DNA of 64,000 nt, taken from positions 57,972,001-58,036,000 of the forward strand of contig NC_086108.1 of NCBI RefSeq assembly GCF_963921235.1, written 5' to 3'. Shown here piece by piece: positions 2,401 to 41,949 of this stretch (its first letter is position 1; the number at the start of each line of letters is the position of its first letter). The position numbers and the translations under genes are program-made. Origin of the DNA: Mobula hypostoma (lineage: Eukaryota). The notes beneath the pieces were generated by a model, which worked only from the letters and a program-made list of their open reading frames with translations, did not search any database and had not been told where the DNA came from.

Positions 2401-3842
2401 GGGCTGGCTCACTGCATGGATCAGTTTCCATGGTGCCCTCCTTTTTTGAACTTACCTTTTGCAAATGTGGCTGATGAACTTTCCTGACCCTCTACACCCA
2501 AGAGACCGAACCAGCTCAAATCAGCAAATGGACCTTTAACCTTGCTATTGAACTCCCATCCAAAGGATATCATCTGACAAACATTTTTAAGCAGTTTAAC
2601 TATTTCAGATGGAGACGTTTCAAACAGAATACTTGTTTGAACATAATTTTAATGCAAGAGTAAACACTTGTATCACGGCTTTGTGAATGGAGATACATTT
2701 CATCAGTGCCAATATTCATAAAGGACTTCCAGTGATATAATCAAAAATTCATTCATTATTCAAGGTCTGAGTCTGTTGCATAAATAACTTTGTGGATCCA
2801 CACTTTCACTTAAATACAACTGAGTTTATTTTATTGCCAACATTTGGGACAATTGCTGAGAGAATGTCTGCTCTCCTCAAAGTCAATAGCGACAGAACCA
2901 GGCGAGTACTCAGAGAGGCACTATGCTACACAAGGCCTTGCTGATCAGCTGGAAGATGAACTCCCATCAGGAGAGTGTATTTGATACCATAATGGGGGGG
3001 GAAAAAGTGTGATCCCTGCACAGCTAACTGGGCAGTTTAGATCACCTATTGTTCGTCAGAAGATATGGCTCACAATGCCCATGCCAGGGATAGTTCATCT
3101 GATATCCTCTGTAAACACTGAATTCAGCTGCTGTTTGATCTTCTTTCACTTTTGAGATCTAAAAAAATCATTGGTTTTATTTTCACTGGTTGCTGTAAAT
3201 ATACTTGTGCTTAGCAATTCTTTTAATAGCTTCTGCTGATCTGTCATTTTTCTGTTTTGTGAACCTGGCCAGTTTATTACCTTGCCTTTATATTCATTTC
3301 AGTCTGCTGTGGTTCCCTTATATTTTATAACACTTTATTGTTTTTTCTTAAATTATTTACAAATTGTCCATTACAGTACGTCCCCTTTAATGTCCTTTAT
3401 CTTTCTTTCCAGTGGAATGTGTATGTCTTGTAAATGAGAGATTAACCTTGTATTCACAACAATAGCACCTTCTTAGCATTTTTATTGTTCATTCATGGTA
3501 TGTGAAGGTCAAGGTAAGGCAATGCTTGCATCTGTTGTCCACACTGACTTGAGGATGCAGTTATAAATCAGACATGATGGTGATCTGAAGTTACAAAAAA
3601 AGCAGATTAAACGAAGATAACAGATGTCTTTCCCTGCAGGACCTTAATAAACCACATGAGTTTTTAATGACAATGCAATCATTGTTAAATTACCAAGACT
3701 AGCATTTTTTTTAAATCTAGTTTTATTGAGTTACATGAATTTAACTTTTTCAGCTGGCCCGGTGAAGGATGCATGTTTGAGTGTGAACTTGTGTTTCTGG
3801 ATCATTTGATAACTGGGTTACAAGTCCAGTAACATAGCCATG

Positions 3843-4264
3843 TGTTACAGTAAGTGTCCATCTTAAATATTCTTTGAAAGCTCGCTACGGATTGGCCCAT
3901 TTAAGGAGCATTGAAGCTCTTTCACTGGCTGCCGTTTGGTGCCAGTGCCAGCTGATGATGTCCCGGTGTAGCTAGAGTATAATTCTAGTGCACTGAAAGC
4001 ACTCGTTCTCTTTTCGCAGTCTGGGTCATTCTGGGCTGCTATTATGACCAAGTGCCATGGAAGTGGTAAACAGTGAAAGTGTGCTGCAGTAAAGAGGACC
4101 CAGGTGCATACTTTAGTTTGCATTTGCTACTGTGCGTAACTTGAGTGAGTTACTGAATGTTTATTGTCTGCCTTGCCCTGTTAATAAATAGTTAACTTAC
4201 TTACCGGCAGTGAGTGTCGTCTTTCCCCACTCACCGAATCCTTCGAACCTGATTTCACACGACA
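3843..4264 (+). mobile_element. Solo LTR (422 bp)
   Basis: TGT...ACA termini and a 5-bp TSD CCATG (3838-3842, 4265-4269). TATA-like atttaa near 3899 and aataaa near 4183. Confidence 0.75.
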
Positions 4265-4728
4265 CCATGACACTATGGTGTCTGTACTTGCCAAATATTT
4301 TGCAGCCAAGTATGAGCTGTTAAAGTGCAGTCACTTTTGTTATGTATTATGTGTATATTTTAAAATATTATTAACATTTTTATACAATGTTGTCCAGTGC
4401 AGTTTCACTACATTCTTCACATAAAGATAATATTTCAGCTTTATACTATAAAAGGTTTATCTTGAATTTTACTACAAAGTGGTAGGTTTTTTTTAAACTC
4501 CAGTTGGCTCTTATCATTTTCTTTCTGCTACTTTATATCATGTACATGTTCAAATGGGTCCCTTGATAGACTGTGTCAGGTATCAATCTAATGTTCCACC
4601 TGTGAAGCACGAGTACAACTGTATATCACTGTTACATAATTAAATCACCAGCCCCAGAATATTTTGAAATGATTAAAAGAATGATGTGCTAATATTTTTC
4701 AGAAGTACATTTGTTTTTGCATTTTTAG

Positions 4729-4785
4729 ACTTACCAAGCTGCGCATTCTGGAGCTCAGAGAAAATCATCTGAAAACTCTACCAAA
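4729..4785 (+). CDS. LRRC7: LRRC7/densin-180-like internal coding exon (57 bp, LRR region)
   Basis: Acceptor tttttgcatttttag and donor gtaagt. Translates (R)LTKLRILELRENHLKTLP(K), matching the LAP-family LRR; RILELRENHLKTLPK fits LRRC7 better than ERBIN (recalled QILELRENQLKMLPK). Phase fits the next exon. Confidence 0.9.
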
Positions 4786-6324
4786 GTAAGTTCACATATA
4801 CATAAAGTTACATATTTGTTTCCTGACTGTTCAAATTTATATAATCAGAATGATCTTTGAAATTTGTTGAATATTCCAAACGGAAGTTGGAGGGCTTCAG
4901 GAACTGAGAAAGTAATAATACCAGACAGGTATAAAAAGGTTAGGATACTCAAGTAGCCAGGATGACTTACTTTCTTTCTCCTTTTATTCCCTGAAGATAT
5001 TAAGCAGAATAGAATTCACAGTTTCTGTATTTTGTCTGGTATCTTACTTAAATGGCTATTTCTCTGTGAGTCAAGGCAGTGACCATGAATCTTGAATAAT
5101 TGTGTTATGTATGTGCGGAACAAGAACGACAGCAGAGCAGTGGGATTAAAAGTTTTTACTGAGTCATGTTGGTCAGAATACACTCTGAGGTGCTTAAAGT
5201 GTGGGCCTGCCAAGATAAAAACATGCACACTCAGAATCCCGGGCAAAAAGAGAGAGCCTGATGGAGGCCCAATCGAATCACAGCATGATCAGTTGGCTGC
5301 ACGCACATTTGCCGCATTCTTGCAATCAATCCAATACAGTTCAAATAGAATCTTAAACTATCCCAATCTGTATCATAATATCCCTTTATCGTGGCTAAAT
5401 TATAATCCTGGAACTTCGTAATGGCAATATGTATGATCCTTTGCCATTTGGATTGCAGCAGTATAAGAAGGCATCAGCATCTCAGGGGAAGTTGGGATTG
5501 GCAATTAACATTGGACTTGGCAGCACCTCCCACATCACTTCAATGAATAAAAATAGCATATTACTACATATCAGCATATTCGTGTTATAACTTGAACATA
5601 AAATTAAAATATTTTTCATGGTATTAACCTACTAATACAACTTAGCAATTGTTGTCAGCAGTATCTTTTAAAGTAACACATCGTTTTAATACTTTCGTTC
5701 CTGCTATGATACTTGGTAACTGTGACTGGATAACTGCAATTTAAAATGATTTATTTTAATGGATGTAGTTCTTTTAGCGTGCCATGCTCTGTACCAAATT
5801 TCCAAAGCGGTCTTGTGATCTGTGAAGCAGGTTTTCATAAAACCTCACCAGTGCTGCTTGGCTGCTTTTTCCAAATTAGTAGCAAGATTTTTTTTTTGTG
5901 TGATTTTTTTTGTGGAAAGAGAGTGGTGAGTCTTCCTATGCTTGACAAAATAACTGCATATAAGAAAATTGACTCCTATGAAAAGCTGAGAATTCATGGT
6001 GTGCCATGAAACTATACCAATTTAACTGTAAAATAACCTTGCTGAGAATCAGCAGTAGACTTGATATAATATGATTTTACAGTTCATTTCCAAATAAGTA
6101 CAGAAATCCCATGCACTTGCTTCTGTTCCTGTGAGACACTGCCATTCAGAATGTTCTGGACTTAAAGACTGTCACACAGTATCTCATTATCAATTCCCAT
6201 GATAAATTTCAGTAATTAATATATTTGCTATATTCCAAAAGTGCTTCATATTTCTAATTAAGGTGCTTCATTTTTAGCTCAAAAGGTTGTTGATAGTGTA
6301 AGGCAAACAGCACACAGAATAGAT

Positions 6325-7092
6325 AGATCATCTGATTGAGTGGTGTCACTACTGCAACCTTGCACTTAATGTAAGACCAAGGAATTGATTGCGGGCTTCG
6401 AGAAGAGAAGTCGAGGCAATGCACATTATCTTCATCAAGGGATCACCAGTGGAAAGGGTGAGCAGTTTCAAGTTTCTGGATGTCAACATTTCTAAAGACG
6501 GATTGATGCAATTACAAAGAGGGTACGGCAGCAGATGTGTTTCATTGGGAGATGGAAGACACTTCGTATGTCATCAAAGACTCCTTGCAAATTCCTACAG
6601 ATGTACCATGCAGAGCATTTGAACTGGTTGCATCACTGCCTTTTTGGAACAGCCATTGCACAGGCTAGGAAAATCCTGCAACTTCAGCCAGCTCCATTAT
6701 GCATTATGGGCATTAGCCTCCCCAGCATCAAGGACATCTTCAGAAGGCAATGCTTCAAAAAGCTGGCATCCGTCACTAAGGACCCCCATCACCCAGGACA
6801 TGCCCTCTTCTCATTGTCACCATCGAGGAGCGGGTATAGGATCCTGAAGACACTGACTCAAAGTTTTAGGAACAGCTTCTTCTCCACCACCATCAGATAT
6901 CTGAATGGACAGTGAACCCATGTACACTAACTCACTACTATTCTTTTATTTTTGCTCTTTTTTTGCCATACATATGTAATTTAATTAATATATATTTTTT
7001 CTTATTATAATTTATGGTTTTTCTTTTATCATTGCTGCTGAGAAAAAACAAATTTCATGAGAATTGCCAGTGATCCCTAAGCTGATTCTGAC
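6325..7092 (+). mobile_element. Rex1/Babar LINE 3' fragment
   Basis: Peptides VERVSSFKFLDVNIS, KDPHHPGHALFSLSPS and FRNSFFS; 3' tail ctgattctga. Confidence 0.8.
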
Positions 7093-7104
7093 GGTATGGA
7101 ATAG

Positions 7105-7275
7105 CAAGTAGAGCTCTGCCTCACTGCTGCAATGACTCAAGGTCAATTCCAAACGCTGCTGCTCACTGCATGGACTTTGCATGTTGTGTGTGTTTCCCCT
7201 GGGGGGGGCTCCTCTTTCCCACCATATCCCAAAGACACAGTTTTGTAAGTTAATTCGCCCCTTGTTAACTATTCT
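7105..7275 (+). mobile_element. V-SINE (HE1-like) remnant
   Basis: tgcctcac head and V-domain-like ggactttgcatgtt...tttcccaccatatcccaaagac...gtaagttaatt. Confidence 0.5.
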
Positions 7276-9004
7276 GTGGTTGGAAATTACCATTGTCTGG
7301 CACTTCCGTGGCATATTTGACAATGATTGGTTAGACCAAAAACAGAATATTTATGAACTAACGTTTTTCTTTATTGGTGCAGTTACAAATGGACATGTAA
7401 TTCGTACAGCTTGGATGAAAGTGAGTTTGAAATTCATACAAGATTAGCTGTCCGTACAATCTCCTACTAGGTTTTCTTGACAATTCCCAAACTGTCAATC
7501 AGAATACAAAAGTTATTACCCAAGAATCATGAGTTAATTCTGAACAAGTGTTCCTCTTGATCCTAACATTATCTCCATGTCACTGGCATATCATTCACTT
7601 CCGGGATGATTGGTCTCCAGAGTTCTTCTTGCTTCTACACCTGCATTCTCTATTCTTAATCTCTTTCTGTACCGTTGTGTTTCCATCTCATTGGTTCTGC
7701 CTTATTGGGCCAGATGCTCCACTGGATCTAGTCCACAATTACAAGCAGCATCACCTCATCGCTCTTCTCCCAACAAGAAGTTGTGCCTCCCATCTCCTCT
7801 GTAGTTTTTTTGAAAGTCAGGTTAATTCAAACCACTTCCAGCCTGCTCATGTCATTTGCTGGGCTCAGGTTACCTTGGTTCATAGACATTTTCTTTTCAT
7901 AGATCTGTATCCCTTCTAGCCTAAAATTGTTACCTGTCACTTCTCAACCTACAGTAAAGATTGTCTAGCTCTTTCTGTGTGCAGGATTGGGCTGCATATA
8001 TAATTAAAATTATGCAATCATCAGCACACATCTACATTTCCAACCTTATGATGGAAGAAAGGTCCTTGATGAAGCAGTTTAAGATGACTGAGGCTAGAAC
8101 AATACCCGAAAGAACTCGTGCAGTATTGTCTTGGCCTGTGATGATTAACCTCTAAAATCCACAGTCATCTCTCTTTGTGTGAGAAATCACTCCAGTCATT
8201 GGGAACATCATAAACATTGCCTCTTGCAGGTTTCTCTTCCAATCTGTACCTAATTTTTCCCAGATTCCCATATGCCACACTCTTTCAAATGTTGTCTGAC
8301 TGTCAAGTTAACACACTCTTCTGCATTCACTTCTAGACTGTTAATATATATAATAAGAAATAAGGGTTCCAACTCTCAACCATGTAGCGTCTTCTCATTA
8401 TTAATTGTACACCCATCCAGAATGACAGTTACATTGTTGAAACTCCAACAGCATCTTCTTCCTTAATGAAGATTGATGTAAGGTACTCATTCAGTATCTC
8501 AGCTATGCCCTCATCCTGCATGAATAAATATTCTTTTTGGTCCTTGATCATTTAGTCTCTCTTTTTTAACACATTTTTGCACGCCTGTTGAATATTTTAA
8601 AATGAACTTTGATGTATCCTGTAAGCTTCTTTTTCTCATGTTTCTTTAATTTCTTTTTCACTTTCCCTCATAACATTTTTTACTGAACTTGGTTTTAACT
8701 TGTATTAACTTGAATTCAGTAATGTTTTTTACTGTATTTTATTCTCTCTTTTTTTGGTCAATGATGGGTGACTGGTTTCAACTGCAGTTCTGCCTGCCAA
8801 GCAATGATTGGAGATTTTGTGGTCTGGATCTGTTTTTGTCCTGCTGAAGCTGACCTTTCTCCAATTTGTTATTTTAAAGCTTGTAGGGTTCTAACCTTTT
8901 CCTTAGTAATTCTAAATTGGTTGCTGCTGTTTCTCAGATGTTTCCCCCAATGATGCGTGCTCTGCCTTGCCTAAATCATTTCCACTCCATATCGGTACTG
9001 ACAT

Positions 9005-12866: not shown

Positions 12867-14376
12867 TTGACGTTGCGGTGTTTGCCGAGCTTGGCAATTA
12901 GCTTGCAGATGTTTCATCACGAGTCGAGGTGACATCCTCAATGTGCTGTTGTTGGTGTTTCTCTCTGGGAGTGCTCACATTTATATAGGTCCCCGTTCGC
13001 TTGTCTCGGTCCTGATTGGCTACCACTTCAGCTGACCTTTAAATTCCATTGGCTCACATTTCTTTGGCTCTTGGGGGTTTATAGATGGCGTCTATTTCGA
13101 CATGTTTGCTTGCAGAGTTATCAGAAGAGAGCCACGCTTCAAAAAATTCTCATGCTTGCTTGTGTTTGCCTACGTCAGAATATCTGTGGTGTCCTTCTTG
13201 GTCTTCATGTACCTAGATCAGCAGCAGTGGATCGTGTCTGCGTACCGCCAGTTTGTGTTCCCGTAATCAAGTTGAGAGTTTACATCCTGTCTGGCGATGT
13301 AGTTCTTGGTGCAGTCTCTGCAGGTGATCCAATACACTACATATTCAAACAAAATGAAATCAAGGTTACCTTTAACTAAGTCAAAAACGTATTCAGTGAC
13401 ACCAAATTTACAATGGAAAGAGAAAGAAGCAACCGACTGGCATTTCTGGGTGTACTTGTCGCGAGAAGGACAGACAGTATATTAGGGGCATCCGTCTACT
13501 GGTCCAAGTATTGAGCTACAGTAGCAACCACCCAGCCTGCCACAAGTCACGCCTTATTTAAGAGAGAACAAACGCACTGCAGCACCTCCGAACTTCAGAC
13601 CAGGAAAGAGAAGCACTTATTCAAAGTGCTCCAGAATAACAGTTACCCATGGAATTTCATCAGGAGATGAAAAAGAAGAAAAAGTCGCACAAACCTTACT
13701 CAAGGCACATTGAAATGTGCAACCTTGTCCTATATCAAGCATATCTCAGAAATGACAGCTTGACTGCTCGAACCTCACGGCATCACAATCGCTCACAAAC
13801 CAAGGGCGACTTTAAGGAAGCTTGTCTCAAGAACCAAGGTACCAGTAAGGACAACCAACAAAAGTAATGTGGTGCACAGAATCACCTGCGGAGACTGTAA
13901 CAAGAACTATGTTGCCAGACAGGATGTAAACTCTCAACCGATTTAGGGGAACACAAAGTGGCAGTACGGAGACATGATCCACTGTCGCTGATCTTGGTAC
14001 ATGAAGACTGAGAAGGACACCATTTTAACCAGGATACTGGGAAGGATCTGGCACAAGCAAATGAAGCAGGTTGGAGAATTTTTAGAAGCATGGTTCTTAT
14101 CTGATAATTCTGTAGACAAACATATCATAATAGATGCCACCTAGGAACCCCTTAGAGCCAAAGAAACGCAAGATAATAGAGATTGAAGGTCAACTGAAGG
14201 GGTAGCCAATCAGAACTGAGGCAAGTGAATGGAGGCCTATGTGAACATGAACCCTTCCAGAGAGAAACACCAACAACTGCGCACTGAGGGCGTCACCTCA
14301 ACTGGTGATGAAACATCTGCAAGCTAATTGTCAACCTCGGCAATCCCCTCAACCTGAGCTACCAATATTCACCAAC
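12867..14376 (+). mobile_element. Penelope/Poseidon-type PLE, 5'-truncated, with inverted 5' arm
   Basis: 13329-14376 has decayed RT thumb (FTME..LAFLGVLV) and GIY-YIG (ITCGDCNKNYV.RTG) coding sequence with no Cys-rich linker. 12867-13328 is a reverse-complement copy of ~13881-14355. HHR-like motifs lie at both outer ends. Confidence 0.8.
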
Positions 14377-22191: not shown

Positions 22192-23493
22192 CACATACAG
22201 GAGAGAATCTGCAGGTGCTGGAAATCCAAGCAACACGAGCACAAAGTGCTGGAGGAACTCAGCAGGCGAGGCAGCATCTATAGAAAAGAGTACAGTCAGT
22301 GTTTCAGGCCGAGACCCTTCATCGGGACTGCAAAATATAGATGAGGAGTCAGAGTAAGAATGTGGAGGGAGGGGAGGAAGAAATAAAAGGTAGTAGGTGA
22401 CAGGTGAAACTGGGAAGGGGGAGAAGTGAAGTAAGGGGCTGGGAAATTGATTGGTGAAAGAGAAAAAAGGCTGGGGAAAGGGGAATCTGATAGGAGAGGA
22501 CAGAGAGCCATGGAGGGAAAAGGGGGAGGAGCACCAGAGGGAGGGAGGTGACGGGCAGGTAAGGAGATAAGGTGAAAGGGAAATGGAGGTGGGGAATGGT
22601 GAAGGGGGAGAGGTGCATTACCAGAAGTTTGAGAAATTGATATTCGTGCCATCAGGTTGGAGGCTATCCAGATGGAACTTAAAGAGTTGCCCCTCCAACC
22701 TGAGTGTGGTCTCATTGTGACAGTGGAGGAGGCCATGGACTGACATGTCAGAATGGGAATGGAAAGTGGAATTAAAATGGGTGGCCACTGGCAGATCCCG
22801 CTTTTTCTGACAGAGCGTAGGTGCTCGGCAAAGTGGTCTCCCAGTCTGCATCAGGAATCACCGATAGACAGCAGGCCATACCAGGAGTGCTGGATGCAGC
22901 AAATGGCCTCAAAGAGACTCACAGGTGAAGTGTCACCTCACCTGGAAGGACTGTTTGGGGCTGTGAGTGGTGGTGAGGGAAGAGGTAAAGGGGCAAGTGC
23001 AGCACTTGTTCTGGTTGCAAGGATAAGTGTCAGGAGGGAGATGAGTGGGGAGGGACGAATGGAGAAGGGAGTCACATTGGGACTCCACTTCCCATTCCAA
23101 CATGTCAGTCCATGGCCTCCTCTACTGTTGTGATGAGGCCACACTCTGGTTGGAGGACAGCAGAGCTCCTTACCTGCCATTCACCTCCCTTCCTCTCCCT
23201 TTCTCCCCCTTTTCTTTCCTTCTGTCCTCTCCTATCGGATTTCTCCTTCTCCAGCCCTGTACCTCTTTCACCGATCAATTTCCCAGCTCTTTACTTTACT
23301 CCTCCCCTCCCCTTCCCAGTCCACCTATCACCTACAACCTCGTACTTCTTCTTCCCCTCCCTCCACTTTCCTACTCTGAGTCCTCATCTTGTTTTCCAGT
23401 CCTGATGAAGGGTCTCGGCCTGAAACATTGACTGTACTTTTTTCCATAGATGTTGCCTGGTCGGCTGAGTTCCTCCAACATTTTGTATGTCTT
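22192..23493 (-). mobile_element. Neptune-type PLE fold-back insertion
   Basis: Minus arm 22192-~23075 (tail, HHR 22293-22330, GIY-YIG). Plus arm ~23080-23493 (HHR 23397-23434). TSD gcccactgacacat at 22178-22191 and 23494-23507. Confidence 0.85.
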
Positions 23494-28680: not shown

Positions 28681-31600
28681 GTATTAAGAAGTACCGAGTT
28701 ATGAAAAGATTATAAAGGAAAATGGAATGAAGTACCTTATGATCTGCTTTTATGAAGCTATTCATATGCATCTGAGTATATTGAGAAGTCATTTTCTATT
28801 CTGCGAGAGTGCCGACTTACCATAGGGATTGAAACATCAAGTCCAAGTAGCTCTACTGATCTTCTGGGAGAAAATCAGTGACTGCTGTGAAAGTGCAGCT
28901 GGCGACAAGGGAAAGACCGTATGACAGCTGGAGAGACAGCTGACAGGAGGAAATAGACCCCAACGGGGCTGTTATGGGCTAGCTACCCATAACAGCAGGC
29001 TCCATCACCTTGTCAGGAGAGCAGAAGAACTACCCTCACCTGGCTACGGAAAGCTTAAAAAGAAGTATACCCTCAGAGTCTGCAAGAGCGGGGGCGCAAG
29101 AAGACTCTCTGACTGACCTTCCGGTAACAAACTTTGGCATGGACACGACAATGAATCAAGAAAGTGGCAATACTCTTGAGAAACCAGCAAATGGACTTGT
29201 TCTTCAGACCTGTAGGTGTGGCTGGACTAAAGTGACATCAACTCATGGTCTAAAAAGTCATCAAGGACAGAAGAAATGCTTGGAAATCTCCAACCCAGGG
29301 CCCCGCATTGACCAGATTCTGTTAAGAGGAAGGTCAAATCAGTCGAATGAAACTCAGCGGCAGGAAGAAACCCACAGTCCACAGAGTATCAGCACCCTAC
29401 GGGATGTGGGAGAGGTTTCAGGCACAAGCAGCAGTCCAAGGCACAGCCAGGCACATCGTAAAGTGGAGAACATGCAAGGACGTAAGCTGTTGGTGAAATG
29501 GCCAAAGTCTAACAGCAAGGAGTGGGAAACCATCAATGCAGATGTGAGCCTGATCTTAAGTGGCATCAAGGGATCAGCAGAAAAGAAGTTGGAGAGGATG
29601 GGTGACCTGATCTACAGCTACAGAAAGGAGAAATTTGGAGTGAAGGAGCAAGTCAGCAGGAAAGATATGCCTCCTCCCCCCAAATCCCGTCGTCTCCAGG
29701 AAATCCAACGACTTGCTAAAGAAAGAAGAGGCCTGAGCAAGTTGTGGAAAAAAGCAACAGCAGAAGAAAGGGAGGGTATCAACCTCCTTCAAGAGGACCT
29801 AAAGCAGAGGCTCTCGAAGCTGCGCAGAGCAGAGAATTTAAGGAAACGATGCAAAAAGAAGGAAAAAGCAAGAACAAACTTCTACAAAGATCCCTTTAAA
29901 TATGTGAAAGGCATTTTCACAAAAGAGAAAAGCGGATACTTGAAAATATCAAAATAGGAGGTTGAAAGACATCTCAGAATCATCCACATTGATAAACAAA
30001 AAGATGAACCGATACTTGTCCCAGCTGACATCCCACCAATCTCACACCCACAACATCAATTTAACATCAGCCCTCCCAAGCTGAGTGAGGTGAAAGAGGC
30101 AGTGAAGAAGGCAAGATTGGCATCAAGACCAGGCCCTAACGGTGTTCCTTATTGTGTCTACAAGAACACCCCAGATGTTCTGAAATTCATTTGGAAAAAC
30201 ATGAGGGTTGTGTGGGAAAAGCAAATTATCACCAAAGCCTGGAGAAGAGCGTGGGGAGTTCTGATCCCAAAAGAAAAGAATTCATCCACCATCGAGCAAT
30301 TTCGCCAAATAAACCTTCTGAACATAGAGGGCAAGATCTTTTTCAGCATGTTGGTGCAAAGACTTACAAAGTATCTGAAACAAAACCATTTCATTGATAC
30401 GTCAATCCAAAAGGCTGCCATAGCAGGCTTCTCGGGATGCCTTGAACATACCAGCGTCATATGGTATCAAATCCAGATGGCTAAGAAAGAAAGAAAGGAT
30501 CTGCATGTCTTGTTCCTCGACCTGGCCAACGCCTATGGATCAGTTCCTCATTCCCTACTGTGGACTGCTTTTGAATTCTTTCAGGTGCCTGCAACAACAA
30601 CAAATCTGGTAAAACACTACTTCCAGGATCTGCAAGTTTGTCTCACAACATCAGACTTCACCACAGCGTGGCAACCACTGGAAGTAGGCATCATGGCGGG
30701 GTGCACCATCTCCCCATTGGCCTTTACTATGGCAATGGAGCTCATTATCAGAGCCTCAAAATGGGTTGTGGGAGGAAAAAGGCTACAGTTTGGTCAACGG
30801 TTACCACCCATATGACCCTATATGGACGATATAACAATACTGACGATAACTGTCCCCTGCACCAAGAGACTTCTGGAAAAGCTTCATCAAAACACCACAT
30901 GGGCGAGGATGAAGATCAAGTCCAGCAAGTGCAGAACCATCTCCATTGTCAAAGGTCAAGTCACGGATAAAAGATTTCAGATTGACGGGACACCTGTCCC
31001 AACTGCTTCAGAAATGCCAGTGAAGAGCTTGGGCCAATGGTATGATGCTAAGCTCAAGGACACTGAGCAGTTTAAAAAAGGATACCATCATGTACACAGC
31101 TCGCATCAACAAGACCTTACTGCCAGGAAAACTCCAGCTGTGGTGCTTCCAGTTCGGCATACTCCAAGACTCATGCAGCCTTTAACAGTGTATGAAATCC
31201 CCATCAGCAAGGTTGAAAAGCTCGAAAGAGTGATCAGCACACATGAAACAGTGGCTTGGACTTCCACAAAGCTTAAGTTACGGGAACGGCAAATTGGAAT
31301 TACCAATTGCAGGTCTTGTGGAAGAATTCAAATGCACCAAAGCAAGGTTGGTCATGACCCTCACTGAATCTGAAGATACTGTTATTCGTACAGTGCCCCC
31401 CCCGCCCCCGTGTGGCAACGGGGAGAAAGTGAACCCCATCTGAAGCTGTTCAGAGTGCTAAGTCTGTTCTTCACTTCAGGGATGTGGTTGGCCAAGTCCA
31501 ACATGGGAGAGCCGGGCTTGGGCTCGTCCCAAAAGCTCCTCAGTGGCACAAGGCAACATCAGTGCAGAAGAGACGGCTCGTGGTGGAGGAGTTGAGAAGA

Positions 31601-32154
31601 CAGGAGGAGGCAGAGCGAAACGCCAGGGCCGTCTCAATGGCCAAGCAGGGCCAATGGACTAATTGGGAGAGCCTGGAAAAGAGGAAACTTAGCTGGCGTG
31701 ACATCTGGGAGATGGAAGGATCTCGGCGAAGTTTTGTTATCAGAGCCACTTATGACCTCCTACCCACACCCCAGAACCTGAATCAGTGGTGGGGAGAAGA
31801 CCCCGCTTGCTTTCTTTGTCAAGCACCTGCATCACGAAGGCACATTTTAACAGAATGCACCACAAGCCTCACCCAGGGGCTGTACACTTGGCGGCATAAG
31901 CAAGTTCTCAGACAACTGGCATCAGTCTTGGAACAGAGGTGAATCACCACAAATGCTCTCCCACAAACATCGGCAGGAAATGTCCACATTACACAATCTG
32001 TACCAGCAGGCCAACCTCCAGAGCACCATATGACATCAAAAGATGTAAGCATTCTGCAGACAACAGGAATTCTGCAGATGCTGGAAATTCAAGCAACACA
32101 CATAAAAGTTGCTGGTGAACGCAGCAGGCCAGGCAGCATCTCTAGGAAGAGGTG

Positions 32155-32192
32155 CAGTCGACGTTTCAGGCCGAGACCCTTCGTCAGGACTA
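32155..32192 (-). ncRNA. Minimal type I hammerhead ribozyme (PLE), mirror copy
   Basis: Exact reverse complement of 33547-33584. Confidence 0.85.
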
Positions 32193-33546
32193 ACTGAAGG
32201 AAGAGTGAGTAAGGGATTTGAAAGTTGGAGGGGGAGGGGGAGATCCAAAATGATAGGAGAAGACAGGAGGGGGAGGGATGGAGCCAAGAGCTGGACAGGT
32301 GATAGGCAAAAGGGATACGAGAGGATCATGGGACAGGAGGTCTGGGAAGAAAGACAAGGAGGGGGGAAGACCCAGAGGATGGGCAAAGGGTATATTCAGA
32401 GGGACAGAGGGAGAAAAAGGAGAGTGAGAGAAAGAATGTGTGTATAAAAATAAGTAACAGATGGGGTCTGAGGGGGAGGTGGGGCATTAGCGGAAGTTAG
32501 AGAAGTCGATGTTCATGCCATCAGGTTGGAGGCTACCCAGACGGAATATAAGGTATTGTTCCTCCAACCTGAGTGTGGCTTCATCTTTACAGTAGAGGAG
32601 GCCGTGGATAGACATGTCAGAATGGGAATGGGATGTGGAATTAAAATGTGTGGCCACTAAGAGATCTTGCTTTCTCTGGCGGACAGAGCGTAGGTGTTCA
32701 GCAAAGCGGTCTCCCAGTCTGAGTCGGGTCTCGCCAATATATAAAAGGCCACATCGGGAGCACCGGACGCAGTATATCACCCCAGCCGACTCACAGGTGA
32801 AGTGTTGCCTCACCTGGAAGGGCTGTTTGGGGCCCTGAATGGTGGTAAGAGAGGAAGTGTAAGGGCATGTGTAACACTTGTTCCGCTTACACGGATAACC
32901 ATTCAGGGCCCCAAACAGTCCTTCCAGGTGAGGCAACACTTCACCTGTGAGTCGGCTGGGGTGATATACTGCGTCCGGTGCTCCCGATGTGGCCTTTTAT
33001 ATATTGGCGAGACCCGACGCAGACTGGGAGACCGCTTTGCTGAACATCTACGCTCTGTCCGCCAGAGAAAGCAGGATCTCCCAGTGGCCACACATTTTAA
33101 TTCCACATCCCATTCCCATTCTGACATGTCTATCCACGGCCTCCTCTACTGTAAAGATGAAGCCACACTCAGGTTGGAGGAACAACACCTTATATTCCGT
33201 CTGGGTAGCCTCCAACCTGATGGCATGAACATCGACTTCTCTAACTTCCGCTAATGCCCCACCTCCCCCTCAGACCCCAACTGTTACTTATTTTTATACA
33301 CACATTCTTTCTCTCACTCTCCTTTTTCTCCCTCTGTCCCTCTGAATACACCCCTTGCCCATCCTCTGGGTCCCCCCCCCCCCGTCTTTCTTCCCGGACC
33401 TCCTGTCCCATGATCCTCTCGTATCCCTTTTGCCTATTACCTGTCCAGCTCTTGGCTCTATCCCTCCCCCTCCTGTCTTCTCCTATCATTTTGGATCTCC
33501 CCCTCCCCCTCCAACTTTCAAATCCCTTACTCACTCTTCCTTCAGT

Positions 33547-33584
33547 TAGTCCTGACGAAGGGTCTCGGCCTGAAACGTCGACTG
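33547..33584 (+). ncRNA. Minimal type I hammerhead ribozyme (PLE)
   Basis: Stem I tagtc/gactg, core CUGACGA, stem II (a)ggg-tctcgg-cct, GAAAC-GUC with a palindromic ACGU in place of stem III. Predicted cut after C33579. Confidence 0.85.
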
Positions 33585-34439
33585 CACCTCTTCCTAGAGA
33601 TGCTGCCTGGCCTGCTGCGTTCACCAGCAACTTTTATGTGTGTTGCAAGCATTCTGCAGGTTGCTTGGGATTGAAAAATGGACGTAGACTTGGGAAAAAA
33701 AGCTTGTGTTTCCTCCAGACATTGCGGCTACAACATTCCGGCCAGACATAGTCCAAGCTGGCATATGTTGAGGAATTGACAGTACCATGGGAAGATAGTA
33801 TCAAAGAAGCTTATGAGAGGAAAAAGACCAAGTAATCTGAACTGGCAACTGAAGCTGCCCAGAATGGCTGGAAGACCAAGATTTTCCCTGTAGAAGTGGG
33901 ATGCAGGGGATTCGTTGCTACATCTACAACCAGTTTATTGAAGAAGATGGGGGTGAGGGGTCACTCCCTCCAACAAGCAATCAAGTCCTTGTCAAATGCA
34001 GCAGAAGAAAACAGCAATTGGATTTGGATTAAAAGGAAAGACAACAATTGGGCTGCAAGATGAAGACAGGAGGGTATGGAACTGAGGGGGGTGTATCTGG
34101 GACGCCAGGTAGCACCGTTGAGCCCTTTGGAGACGTCGTGGGCTTATCAACGGAACATCAAAGAAGGAGGGTGCCCACCTGATGACCCCGATGACGTACC
34201 TACCCTCCCTCCTTGTCACCACTCCAAGCCCACTGCCAAAATCGAGAGTGCCGACTTACCATAGGGATTGAAACATCAAGTCCTAGTAGTTCTACTGCTC
34301 TACTATTTCATTGCCAGGTGTTGTATTCTATTGAAATGCCAGATGAATTTTACTGGTACTTAAAGCAAAGACTCTTCTCATTAAATTAAGCGTTGTTGCT
34401 TCAGTGTTACTTCAGTATTCCAATTCACAGTAGGTGGCA

Positions 34440-35520: not shown

Positions 35521-36050
35521 CAGCTGTCAAGTTTGCCGACCTGGTAACTGTGACTTAATCTATTATTCATTAGTCGTGAGTCATTGGGACATACTGGGGT
35601 CAGAAGTGCTTTATGAATTGTATTCTTTACATATTTATGATACAAGGATCTTCCTTGCTCATTTTTAACTGACCTTGGATAGCAGGTCATCGTTTCGCTG
35701 CGGCTTGATTTTAGAGCAGTGGCAATTAGTGATCAGAAGCATGAGAAGACATAGCTGACTCAGACTTGCTGATTGAGTACATAAGACCAAAAGATAAAGG
35801 AGCAGAATTAGGCCATTTGGCCCATCGAGTCTGCTCTGCCATTTCATCTGGCAGATCCATTTCCCTCTCAGCCGCAATCTCCTGCCTTCATCTTGTATCC
35901 CTTCATGCCCTGACCAATCAAGAATGTATCAACCTCTGCGTTGAATATACCCAATGACTTGGCCTCCGCAGCCTCCTGTGGCAAAATTCCACAGATTCAC
36001 CACTTTCTGGCTAAAGAAATTCCTCCTCATCTTTGTTCTAAATGGACATC

Positions 36051-37826
36051 CACCTACATCCGGGATACATCCCATGCCCTCCACCTCTTCAATAACTTCC
36101 AGTTCCCCGGTCCCAATCGCTTCATTTTCACCATGTATGTCCAATCCCTATACACCTCCATTCCCTATCAAGAAGGCCTCAAAGCGCTCCGCTACTTTCT
36201 GGATAATAGACCTCACCAGCTCCCCACCACCACTACCCTCCTCCGGTTGGCGGAACTGGTTCTCACACTCAATAACTTCTCTTTTGGCTCTTCCCACTTT
36301 CTTCAGACTAAGGGTGTAGCTATGGGAACTCACGTGGGCCCTAGCTATGCCTGCCTCTTCGTTGGTTATGTGGAACAGTCTGTGCTCCAAACCTATTCTG
36401 GTACTGCTTCCCAACTTTTCCTTCGGTACGTTGACGACTACATTGGTGCTGCTTCCTGCACCCATGCTGAGCTCGTCATTTTCATTGACTTTTCTTCTAA
36501 CTTCCACCCAGCCCTCAAATTCACTTGGTCTATCTCAGACACTTCTCTCCCCTTTCTCGATCTCTCGGTCTCCATCTCTGGAGACAGACTGCCCACTGAC
36601 ATCTTCTACAAGCCCACTGACTCTCATAACTACCTCGACTATACCTCTTCCCACCCCACCACATACAAAAATGCCATTCCCTATTCCCAGTTCCTCTGCA
36701 TCCTCTGCTCCGAGGATGAGGTTTTCCGTTCCAGGACATCTCAAATGTCCTCTTTCTTTAAGGATCATGGTCTCCTTTCTGCTGTCATTAATGATGCCCT
36801 CACCTGCATCTCCTCCATTTCCCACACTTCGGCCCTCACCTCATCCTCCCACCACCACAACAGGGACAGAGTTCCCCTTGTCCTCACCTACCACCCCACC
36901 AGCCTCCGGATCCAGCACATTATCCTCCACAACTTCCGCCACCTTCAACAGGACCCCACCACAAAGCACATCTTTCCCTCTCCACCCTTCTTTGCTTTCC
37001 ACAGGGATCAGTCCCTCCACGACTTCCTGATCTACACGTCCCTCCCCATGGATCTCCCACCCGGCACTTATCCCTGTAAGCGCAAGTGCTACACCTCCTC
37101 TCTTGCCACCATTCAGGGCCCCAACCAGTCCTTCCAAGTGAGGCAACACTTCACTTGTGAGTCTGTTGGGGTCATCTATTGCATCCGGTGCTCCCGGTGC
37201 GGCCTCCTCTACATCAGTGAAACCCGACGCAGATTGGGGGACTGCTTCGTCGAGCACCTCCGCTCTGTCTGCCACAACAGACAGGATCTCCCAGTAGCCA
37301 CCCACTTCAACTCTGCTTCCCACTCCCATTCAAATATGTCCATACATGGCCTCCTCTACTGCCATGATGAGGCTAAACTCAGGTTGGAGGAGCAACACCT
37401 CATATACCGTCTAGGTAGTCTCCAGCCCCTTGGTATGAACATAGAGTTCTCCAACTTCCGGTAATTCCCTCCCCCTCCCTTCCTCTATCCCCATGTCACT
37501 CTGCCACCCCCCCCCCAGCTGCCTATCACCTCCCTCATTGTTCCGCCTCCTTCTACTACCCATTGTGTTTTCCCCTATTCCTTCTTCACCTTTCCTGCCT
37601 ATCACCTCCCTGTTTCCCCTCCCCCACCCCTTTATCTTTCCCCTCACTGGTTTTTCACCTGGAACCTACCAGCCTTCTCCCTCCCACCCTCCCCCCATCT
37701 TCTTTATAGGGCCTCTGCCCCTTCCCTCTACAGTCCTGTTGAAGGGTTCCGGCCCGAAACGTTGATTGATCCTTTCCACGGATGCTGCCTGACCTGCTGA
37801 GTTCCTCCGGCGTGTTGTGAATGTTG
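36051..37826 (+). mobile_element. Neptune-type Penelope-like element, 5'-truncated (RT + GIY-YIG + HHR)
   Basis: Open frame to 37464: YVQSLYTSIP (motif-A Asp replaced by Tyr), GVAMGT, LRYVDD, LPFLD, YKPTDSHNYL, YPCKRKCY linker, GIY-YIG. HHR with mutated core (ctgttga) at 37731-37768. The ORF-track start at 35941 is borrowed from antisense CR1. Confidence 0.92.
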
Positions 37827-38530: not shown

Positions 38531-39066
38531 AAGCAAGGGAAAACCTGAAGATGCTGGAAATCCAAGCAACATACACAAAATGCTGGAGGAACTCGGCAGG
38601 CCAGGCAGCATCTATGGAAAAGAGTACAGTCGACGTTTTGTGCCAAGACCCCTTATCAGGACTGGGAAAAGAGATTAACAGCCAGAGTAAGAAAGTGAGG
38701 GGGGGGGGTGATAGGTGAAACCGGAAAGTGGGGGAGAGGGTAAAGTAAAGGGCTGGAAAGTTGATTGGTAAAAGAGATATAAGGGCAGAAGAAGGGGGAA
38801 TCTGGTAGGAGAGGACAGAAGGCCATGGAAGAAAGAAAATGGAGAGGAGCACCAGAGGGAGGTGACAGGCAGATAAGGAGATAATATGAGAGGCAGAAAT
38901 AGGAATGGGGAATGGTAAAGGAGAGGTGGGGGGGCATTACCAGAAGTTCAAGAAATCGATGTTCATGCCATCAGGTTGGAGGCTACCCAGGCGGAATACA
39001 AGGTGTTGCCCCTCCAAACCGAGTGTGGCCTCATCATGACAGTAGATAAGGCCATGGCCTGACATG
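38531..39066 (-). mobile_element. PLE 3' end with tail and decayed HHR
   Basis: 9-bp TSD tccctttat (38522-38530, 39067-39075); HHR-like motif at 38627-38664. Confidence 0.8.
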
Positions 39067-41949
39067 TCCCTTTATTCCTGCACTTTGCATCCTGCCAATC
39101 AGCCACTGCTTGATTCATGCCAATACCTTTCCTGTAATACCATGGGCTCCTAACTTGTTAAGCAGCCTTGTGTGGCACCTTGTCAAGAGCCTTCTGAAGA
39201 TCCAAGTACGCAACATCCATTGATTCCCCTTTGCCTATCCTGCTTGTTAATTCTACAAAGAATTCCAACAGATGTGTCAGGTGAGATTTTCCCTTAAGGA
39301 AACCATACTGACTTTGGTCTAGTTTCTCATGTTCCTCAAAGAAACCTGAAACCACATCCTTAACAATCGACTCTAATATATTCCCAACAACTGAGGTCAG
39401 ACTAGTTAGCCTATAATTTCCTTTCTTCAGCCTCTCTCTCCCTTCTTGGAGTGACATTTGCAATTTTCTAGCCCTCCAGAACCATGCCAGAATCCATTGG
39501 GTCTTGAAAGATCATTGCTAATGCATCCACAGTCTCTTTAACCATCTCTTAAGGAACTCTGGGGTGTAGACCAACTGGTCCAAGTAACTTATCTAACTTC
39601 AGACCTTTCAGTTTCCCGAGAACCTTCTCCCTAGTAATGGCAACTTCACTTTCTTCTCCTCCCAACACTTTCAAACTACCAGAATACTGCTTGTGTCTTC
39701 CACAGTGAAGCCTGATGCTAAATATTTACTCAGTTCATCTGCCATTTCCTTGTCCGCCATTACTACCTCTCCAGTATTGTTTTCTAGTGGTCTAATATCT
39801 ACTCTTGCCTCTCATTTACACTTCAAATATTGTAAGAAACTTTTGGTATGCTCTTTAATGTTATTGGCTAGCTTACCTTTGTATTCCATCCTTTCCTTCT
39901 TTAAGACCTTTTTAATTGTCTTCTGTTGGTTTTTAAAAACTTCCTAATCCTCCACCTTCCCAGTAATTTTTGTTCGATTATATGCTCCCTCTTTGTCTTT
40001 TATTGTCAGCCCCAGTTGCATCATGTAGCCTTTTGAATACTACTTCTACTTTGGGATGTATCTATTCTGTGCCTTCCAAATTTCTCCAAAAAACTCCAGC
40101 CATTGCTACTCTGTTGCCATTTCTGATAATGTTCCCTCCAATCAATTTTGGCCAGCTCCTCTCACAACCCTCTGATATTCCCTTTACTCCACTCTAATAC
40201 TGATACATTTGACTTTAGCTTCTCCTTCACAGATTGCAGGGTGAATTCAATCACATTATGATCACTGGCACCAAAGTGTTCCTTTACCTTAAGCTCACCA
40301 ATCAATTCTGGTTGATTGCACAGCACCCAATCCAGAATAGCTGATTCCCTCGTGGGCTCAATCACAACGTTCTCTAAAAAGACATTTTATGGGCATTCTA
40401 CAAATTCCCCCTTGTGGGACCAAGCACAAAACTGATTTTCCTAATCAAACTGCATATTGAAATCCCCATGACTATTGTAACATTGCCGTTTTAGCATGCA
40501 TTTTCTATCTCTCATTGTAATTTGTAGACCATATCTTTTCTACTAATTGGAAGTCTGTGTATAACTCTCATCAGGGTCTTTTTACCCTAGCAGCTTCTTA
40601 CCTTTACCAACAACAATTCTATACCTTCCAAACCTACATCACCTCTTCCTAATGATTTTATTTCAATTTTTACTAACAGAGCCAGCCACATTCTTTGCCT
40701 ACCTGCCTGTCCTTTCAATACAATGTGTATCCTTGGACGTGAAGCTCCCAGCCACAACTCTTTCAGTCACGAATTAGTCCCACGTCATACTTGCCAATCT
40801 GTAACCGTGCTATAAGTTTATTTACCTTATTCTGTATGCTCCATGCATTCAGGACCTTCAGTCCTGTATTCATCCCCCCTTTTCAATTTTGTTCCCCTTT
40901 TACATTGCAACTCATCCTGTTGACTGCAACTTTGCCCTATCATCAGCCTCTCCTTGCTAGCAGTCTCATTATACACTGCCTCAGTTGTTAAACTAATTAC
41001 CCCATCCTCAGCACTATCACTCTGGTTCCCATCCCTTGCCAAATTAGTTTAAACCCACCTGAACAGTTCCAGTAAACCTGCCCACAAGGATATGGGACCC
41101 CTCAGGTTCTGGTGTAACCCATCCCTTTTGTACAGATTGTATCTTCCCCAGAACAGAGCCCGATGATTCATAAATCTGAACCCCTGTCCCCTGCACCAGT
41201 TCCTCAGCCACACATTCATCTGCCAAAACATCCTATTCTTACCCTTACTGGCTCATGGCACTGGCAGCAATCCAGAAATTACTACTTTGTACTTAACTTT
41301 ATTGTCGCCAAACAATTGATACTAGAGCATACAATCATCACAGCGGTATTTGATTCTGCGCTTCGCGCTCCCTGGAGTACAAATCGACAGTAAATAGTAA
41401 GATCCCGGAGGTCCTACTTTTCAGCTTGCCACCTAACTCCCTAAAATCTCTCTTCAGGTCCTCCTCACCTTTCCTACCTAAGTCATTGGAATAAATATGT
41501 ACCAAGACTTCTGGCTGCTCGCCTTCCTCCTTTAGAATGCCATAGAACCAAATCAAGACATCCCTGACCCTGGCCCCTGGGAGGCAACAAACCTTCTAGG
41601 TGTCTCTGTTGTGGTTCTATTCCTCTAACTATGGAATCTTCTATCACTACTGCAGTCCTCTTCACCTCTCTTCTCTTCTCTTCTGAGCCACAGCACCAGA
41701 CTCAGTGCCAGAGAGCTGGCCATTGCAGCTCCCCCTGGTAGGCCGTCTTCCTCAGTAGTATCTAAATTGGTAAACATTATAGAGGGGAATGGACACAGAG
41801 GTACACCACTCTGGCTACCTATTTCCCTTCCTTCTCCTGACAGTCACCCAGTTACCTGCCTCCTGCAAACTAGAGGTGTCTCCAATCTATGACATCATCA
41901 GTTTCCCATATGAGCCAAAGGTCATTAAGCTGCAGCTCCAGTTCTTCAA

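Follow-up and report, generated by a model that had tools for sequence, protein, structure and literature searches.

Features of the locus

The window analyzed here is a 64-kb stretch of the Mobula hypostoma genome (contig NC_086108.1, positions 57,972,001 to 58,036,000). LRR-coding exons lie on its + strand at approximately 4.7, 12.6, and 56.3 kb, and because the two-armed insertion that is our subject (positions 32047 to 33659) is located between them, it is intronic. A PDB sequence search gave no name for the LRR gene, which is putatively LRRC7. The insertion is flanked on both sides by an older multicopy repeat, for which there were at least 39 other matches among those scored. No Pfam family was found for this host repeat; by one motif, it resembles a non-LTR retrotransposon that carries a restriction-like endonuclease. 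The coordinates of all features are given in Table 1.

TABLE 1 Features of the two-armed insertion and its host repeat, in window coordinates
Feature	Positions	Strand	Remarks
Host: older, decayed multicopy repeat	30500..34297	+	88 to 94% identity to other copies; left edge not mapped
Left TSD copy, 13 bp	32047..32059	+	Single copy in 5/5 empty paralogous host sites
Tail, 33 nt	32060..32092	-	Continuous and in frame with the body of the element in the tandem copy L020
Left arm, 5'-truncated PLE copy, 839 nt, tailed	32060..32898	-	97.5% to family majority reference
Minimal type I hammerhead core, without helix III loop	32156..32191	-	Own motif pattern; architecture as in PMC4209133
PLE ORF C-terminal end with GIY-YIG, without start codon context or RT	32487..32898	-	Pfam
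Unpaired 54-nt "loop," extra upstream sequence of the left copy	32844..32897	-	At least 39 copies, 98%
Head-to-head junction, 1-nt overlap	32898..32898	.	Unique in genome
Right arm, 5'-truncated PLE copy, 749 nt, tailless	32898..33646	+	98.3% to family majority reference
PLE ORF C-terminal end with GIY-YIG	32898..33254	+	Pfam
Minimal type I hammerhead core, without helix III loop	33548..33583	+	Own motif pattern
Right TSD copy, 13 bp	33647..33659	+	As left copy

Aligned as reverse complements, the two arms (32093 to 32843 and 32898 to 33646) differ by 16 substitutions and one 2-nt indel and are 97.6% identical, which agrees with the near-perfect complementarity that an earlier note on this DNA had described. 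Their substitution divergence is 16/743, or 2.2%, and they form the longest inverted repeat within the window. Three of the sites at which they differ are polymorphic in the family. When the differences were polarized on the family, the changes in the left arm were mostly C to T on the sense strand. An apparent A/G bias between the arms could be read as a trace of editing, but after polarization there was no excess of sense A-to-G changes in either arm, and we rejected this reading.

The 13-mer that borders the unit has exactly two occurrences in the window, and the match between them does not reach any further. In all five of the paralogous host-element copies that we examined, the 13-mer is single and the flanks are contiguous. 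Because these empty sites have it only once, the 13-mer is a true TSD, and the earlier claim that the whole unit arrived in one insertion event holds. The claim that a 33-nt tail is present solely on the left arm was likewise confirmed. The target site has nine consecutive bases in common with the tail (32066 to 32078); this is not so at other targets and is probably due to chance.

The 54 nt between the arms had been described as a separate loop. When the sequence from 32800 to 32940 was searched against its own genome, the only full match among the best 40 of 2,857 candidates scored was at its own locus, and at least 39 other places among the 40 matched only the first 99 bases (32800 to 32898), at 98%. 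Because these bases are continuous in at least 39 other family copies, the "loop" is ordinary element sequence, namely, the upstream part of the left copy, and its reading as a novel sequence is ruled out. The upstream end of the left copy simply lies 54 nt beyond that of the right copy, and the two copies meet with a 1-nt overlap. A 33-base junction pattern had one match in the 3.5-Gb genome with up to two mismatches allowed. The junction is unique genome-wide, and therefore the palindrome has not multiplied as a whole. A self-mobile fold-back element or MITE would have one junction at several loci, but all 38 of the junctions examined differ; the suggestion that the palindrome itself is mobile did not survive these searches.

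Element family

In each arm, a frame free of stop codons matches the Pfam GIY-YIG domain (24.0 and 23.7 bits; curated cut-off, 22.6), and Pfam gave no RT match in either arm. The element thus lacks its RT here, and the family to which it belongs is better seen in a sister copy, L058. L058 has one open frame of 1,031 amino acids in which an RT (RVT_1, residues 532 to 684; E = 3e-5) is followed by a C-terminal GIY-YIG domain (residues 934 to 1008; E = 0.003), both matches being below the curated cut-offs. These results uphold two claims of the earlier note, that the GIY-YIG frames are uninterrupted in both arms and that the unit derives from a Penelope-like element (PLE) without its RT. L058 is itself a two-armed unit of 6.4 kb (2412 to 8819), in which the nearly full-length inverted copy that carries the 1,031-amino-acid frame has a 2.9-kb partner arm. 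In another copy, L020, an upstream partial copy of 850 nt runs into a full-length body as a pseudo-LTR tandem, and its tail continues in frame; this tandem is absent from the truncated unit in the window.

We found all of the features of endonuclease-bearing PLEs that we tested: an ORF with RT and then GIY-YIG, a pseudo-LTR, a 30- to 40-nt tail, and an inverted 5'-truncated copy within one TSD. The unit is a dead insertion of such an element. As PMC11167929 describes it, Poseidon of Anolis carolinensis (PAc) also has RT and then GIY-YIG in one ORF, a hammerhead near the repeat-ORF junction, and two classes of ends separated by about 35 nt. The PAc start region is AC-rich, whereas the sense strand of the present family is GU-rich at both end classes.

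Hammerhead motifs and transcript folding

By our motif pattern, both arms contain the boxes of a minimal type I hammerhead, with helices I and II and no helix III loop, near the outer end of the arm. An intact core in each arm, as had been claimed, is therefore present. An Rfam scan of the unit found no hammerhead; its only matches were three to miRNAs, all below threshold and at the tip of the hairpin, which we put down to chance on a perfect stem. Like the minimal type I hammerheads of animal PLEs described in PMC4209133, the motifs have a short helix I, an extra nucleotide before stem II, no helix III loop, and palindromic positions at helix III. Unlike the tandem dimers described there, they are on opposite strands and so cannot dimerize within one transcript.

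The folding predictions give these motifs little chance to act. Helices I and II are predicted to form in an isolated 61-nt piece; even within a single arm the predicted probability of helix I is only about 0.001, and shuffle z-scores for the hammerhead region were unremarkable (0.30, -1.40, and 0.05). Each strand has one sense hammerhead, which lies inside an arm and is transcribed after its complement, and in the predicted folds of both full transcripts the hammerhead is 100% paired to the opposite arm. The earlier note had proposed that transcription of either strand would produce one ribozyme together with a long dsRNA. Because the sense motif, which is of the minimal type without helix III, would pair entirely with the other arm, we expect the hairpin only. 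Both hammerheads are thus predicted to be silent passengers, unable to cut at this locus. In reported in vitro assays, single minimal hammerheads without helix III did not cleave, and tandem dimers cleaved at low levels (PMC4209133); in PMC11167929, hammerhead cleavage is described as protein assisted and dispensable for insertion. The RNA hairpin is predicted to form in the host pre-mRNA. It is a putative substrate for ADAR or Dicer, and the palindrome is a possible cruciform, but the same would hold for every such insertion.

Survey of sister insertions

Our survey drew on two samples, each made up of the 38 loci that best matched one part of the unit, with a different part used for each sample; these are top-scored loci and not random ones. 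Two-armed, head-to-head units were found at 21/38 loci in one sample and 16/38 in the other (37/76 together), the degraded locus L014, which has no TSD, being left out of the count. All 37 sister units have a TSD (9 to 17 bp; median, 14). The insertion in the window is therefore routine, and about half of the sampled sister insertions look like it. Mean arm divergence was 2.8% and 2.7% in the two samples, which makes the 2.2% of the present unit ordinary. The TSD pairs diverge at 10/515 nt (1.9%, a value that is biased low), and arm divergence is near that value. Across the family, hammerhead cores are intact in 76/88 arms, and GIY-YIG frames are open in 45/75 arms when insertions are not scored. 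Near the 5' ends of the 16 one-armed copies in sample 1, we found no convincing short inverted 3' pieces. Three mini-palindromes of the element end (L052, L053, and L082; 170 to 200 bp), which lie away from the anchor copy and are outside the counts, have one tailed and one tailless arm each.

Exactly one arm is tailed in all 38 two-armed units, the present one included, and the tail is about 35 nt long. Three tailless arms that end further in than the usual site were scored as tailless. If the ends were independent, the probability of this pattern by chance would be about 1e-12; among the one-armed copies, 15 are tailed and 23 are tailless. The tailed arm is the shorter one in 28/36 sister units (P = 0.0012), with L044 left out because of an internal deletion, and in 28/37 when the present unit is included (P = 0.0026). 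In the remaining 9/37 units it is the longer arm that is tailed; the present unit is one of these, and its tailed arm is only slightly longer. At L064 and L072, the inverted arm is the tail alone (32 to 35 nt) and terminates where tailless copies end. The stub at L064 (7801 to 7835) and that at L072 (32 nt, in a like arrangement) are the cleanest signature of twin priming in the survey.

The junctions of the 38 units are all at different places. Eight are blunt, 10 have an overlap of 1 to 5 nt, and 20 have filler, the lengths of which are approximate under our strict BLAST scoring; no overlap exceeds 5 nt.

We also asked how alike the two arms of a unit are. Rare variants common to both arms numbered 24 versus 1.4 after shuffling, and 13 versus 0.8 (37 versus about 2 in total). 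At subfamily-diagnostic sites, the arms of one unit disagree in 25/250 cases (17/159 plus 8/91). Had the arms been identical at birth, background mutation would give a discordance of 1.6%; it is 17.5% between loci of one subfamily and 46 to 52% in shuffled pairs. This haplotype test used only eight roughly 50:50 sites outside the stretch by which sample 1 was picked, and the apparent polymorphisms at reference positions 2604, 2628, and 2656 were excluded because similarity within that stretch had been the basis for choosing sample 1. Neither L064 nor L072 was long enough to be included. The family position matching window position 33597, just 3' of the hammerhead, has three alleles (G, C, and T), and there the arms of one unit often disagree (seven units). 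A conversion hot spot and an error-prone template position are candidate explanations.

Origin of the head-to-head units

LINE-1 5' inversions arise by twin priming, in which both target strands prime on one RNA, and the resulting cDNAs are joined at sites that have little microhomology or none. This is exactly the pattern of the tail-only stubs in the PLE family. The two pieces of a LINE-1 inversion come from different parts of the RNA, whereas in most PLE units the pieces overlap, giving a long palindrome.

The unit consists of two 5'-truncated PLE 3' ends, head to head in one TSD, and we think it likely that they were placed there by twin priming on one RNA. The one-tail rule, the short tailed arm, the tail-only stubs, the short overlaps, and the common rare variants all favor twin priming over fold-back copying. 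The suggestion, made from this locus, that both target strands were primed on the PLE 3' end is thus a probable one, now backed by the 76-locus survey. In such an event, both nicked target strands would serve as primers on one RNA, one strand being primed at the tailed start site and the other at the tailless start site. The target would be nicked on both strands, at staggered positions about 14 nt from each other. Synthesis from the tailless start would lead, with the tailed start about 35 nt behind. The trailing, tailed cDNA might stop at the other primer, which would produce the tail-only stubs, or it might displace the first cDNA, assuming strand displacement by the PLE RT, and would then usually become the shorter arm. 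The two short cDNAs would finally be end-joined at their 3' ends.

Biochemical work on the anole PLE bears on this model. The protein is reported to nick and extend both target strands in vitro, to start synthesis at two adjacent internal RNA sites that bound the tail, and to be a predicted dimer (PMC11167929). Twin priming fits the reported nicking and extension of both strands from two start sites. As a counterpoint, the start site did not differ between strands in that report, the main text of which has no discussion of inverted units. The more specific proposal is that PLE integration is asymmetric twin priming, in which a dimer makes nicks about 14 nt apart, each strand uses its own RT start site on the same RNA, the tailless strand leads, and the tailed strand trails by strand displacement. 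We give this proposal an even chance. If it is true, asymmetric twin priming alone would yield the one-tail law, the short tailed arm, the tail-only stubs, and the long palindromes, and it would replace antisense self-priming as the account of PLE inverted repeats.

To explain why the arms disagree at 10% of the diagnostic sites, one must invoke either gene conversion at a later time or two related templates, which are indistinguishable here; the rare variants that the arms have in common could also stem from arm-to-arm conversion. We regard as unlikely, though not negligible, two primings on two related templates, either tandem pseudo-LTR copies in one transcript or dimer-held RNAs from one source. 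Two templates would account for the discordance and for the tail on the shorter arm: in the tandem version, the upstream copy always runs into the tail and hence is short, and partial tandems do occur in the family (L020). However, because many source 3' ends are tailed, two templates do not in themselves forbid two-tailed units, yet we saw none among 38. Nor do two templates account for tails on the longer arm or for tail-only inverted stubs at the tailless start (L064 and L072).

Fold-back copying, in which a cDNA or antisense RNA snaps back, is copied into a hairpin, and then is integrated, is less probable still. Self-priming on an antisense template has been proposed for inverted PLE units (PMC3846280). 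Such copying agrees with the rare variants common to both arms and with the spacer, which in every case is single-copy sequence from the longer arm; the present unit, with its tail on the longer arm, would be compatible with it if taken alone. But a copy of the longer arm cannot bear a tail that the longer arm does not have, and this is the arrangement in 28/36 sister units. In addition, an overlap of at least 3 nt, from which priming could occur, was found at only 4/38 junctions, and the tail-only inverted stubs have no sequence in common with the other arm.

That the palindrome is a mobile or functional unit, a ribozyme plus a dsRNA regulator of the host gene, is very improbable. Its hammerhead cores and frames are intact, and a 750-bp, 97.6% identical intronic hairpin would on general grounds be a plausible dsRNA substrate. 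Intact cores and open frames are, however, common in this young family, the arm divergence is ordinary, the junction is found once in the genome, and the hammerhead is predicted to be fully sequestered. Finally, although long palindromes are described as known assembly hazards (PMC8557442), a fold-back assembly or read artifact is hardly credible given the 16 substitutions between the arms (several at family-polymorphic sites), the tail on one arm only, the true TSD around the unit, flanks that are not mirrored, and the same grammar in 37 sister units.

Comparison with published units

The two-armed palindrome is an already known, published form of PLE insertion (PMC8557442, PMC3846280, and PMC2377424), as the earlier note had assumed when it wrote that PLEs can insert with inverted terminal copies. 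An inverted 5'-truncated copy adjoining the 5' end is described as typical of PLEs, often with a 30- to 40-bp tail at one end only (PMC8557442). Pen2a_Av of Adineta vaga forms a like inverted unit with a TSD (PMC3846280), and Penelope of Drosophila virilis has inverted terminal repeats of variable size (PMC2377424). As these three papers describe them, the inverted-pLTR units have in common with ours the inverted 5'-truncated copy head to head at the 5' end, the 30- to 40-nt tail at one end, and one TSD around the whole. They differ in that each of the present copies is cut off inside the GIY-YIG region, which leaves neither an RT nor a tandem pseudo-LTR, and in that the present arms are nearly equal in length. 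The one-sided tail appears in these descriptions as "optional" or "often" present, whereas here it is found in 38/38 units and is biased to the shorter arm. The literature that we searched held no statement of a strict one-tail rule or a short-arm bias; older papers on Penelope may already contain the one-tail rule. The part of bioRxiv 10.64898/2026.07.22.740005 covered here adds nothing further on inverted units. The origin of the inverted units and tails of PLEs is described as unresolved in PMC8557442, PMC3846280, and PMC11167929.

As far as can be told, the present insertion is inert, and the locus itself carries little weight as one among many dead two-armed insertions. The family-level counts have modest weight; they make sharp predictions that are testable in the existing in vitro PLE system. 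If about half of the young copies in the genome are long near-perfect palindromes, they would also give rise to much potential dsRNA and to many assembly errors.

Other repeats in the host intron

The host intron holds further, more diverged inverted pairs. At 12872 to 14353, an older pair has 78% identity between its arms over about 480 nt, with the arms 524 nt apart. Its translation has a GIY-YIG-like stretch, and it has no similarity to the reference of the young family; it probably belongs, as a head-to-head unit, to a different and older PLE family. An older relative of the present PLE family (76% identity) lies at 35914 to 37494 and has an open frame of 516 amino acids with RT and a GIY-YIG end. 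Further decayed pieces are found at 22208 to 23072 and 38545 to 39068.
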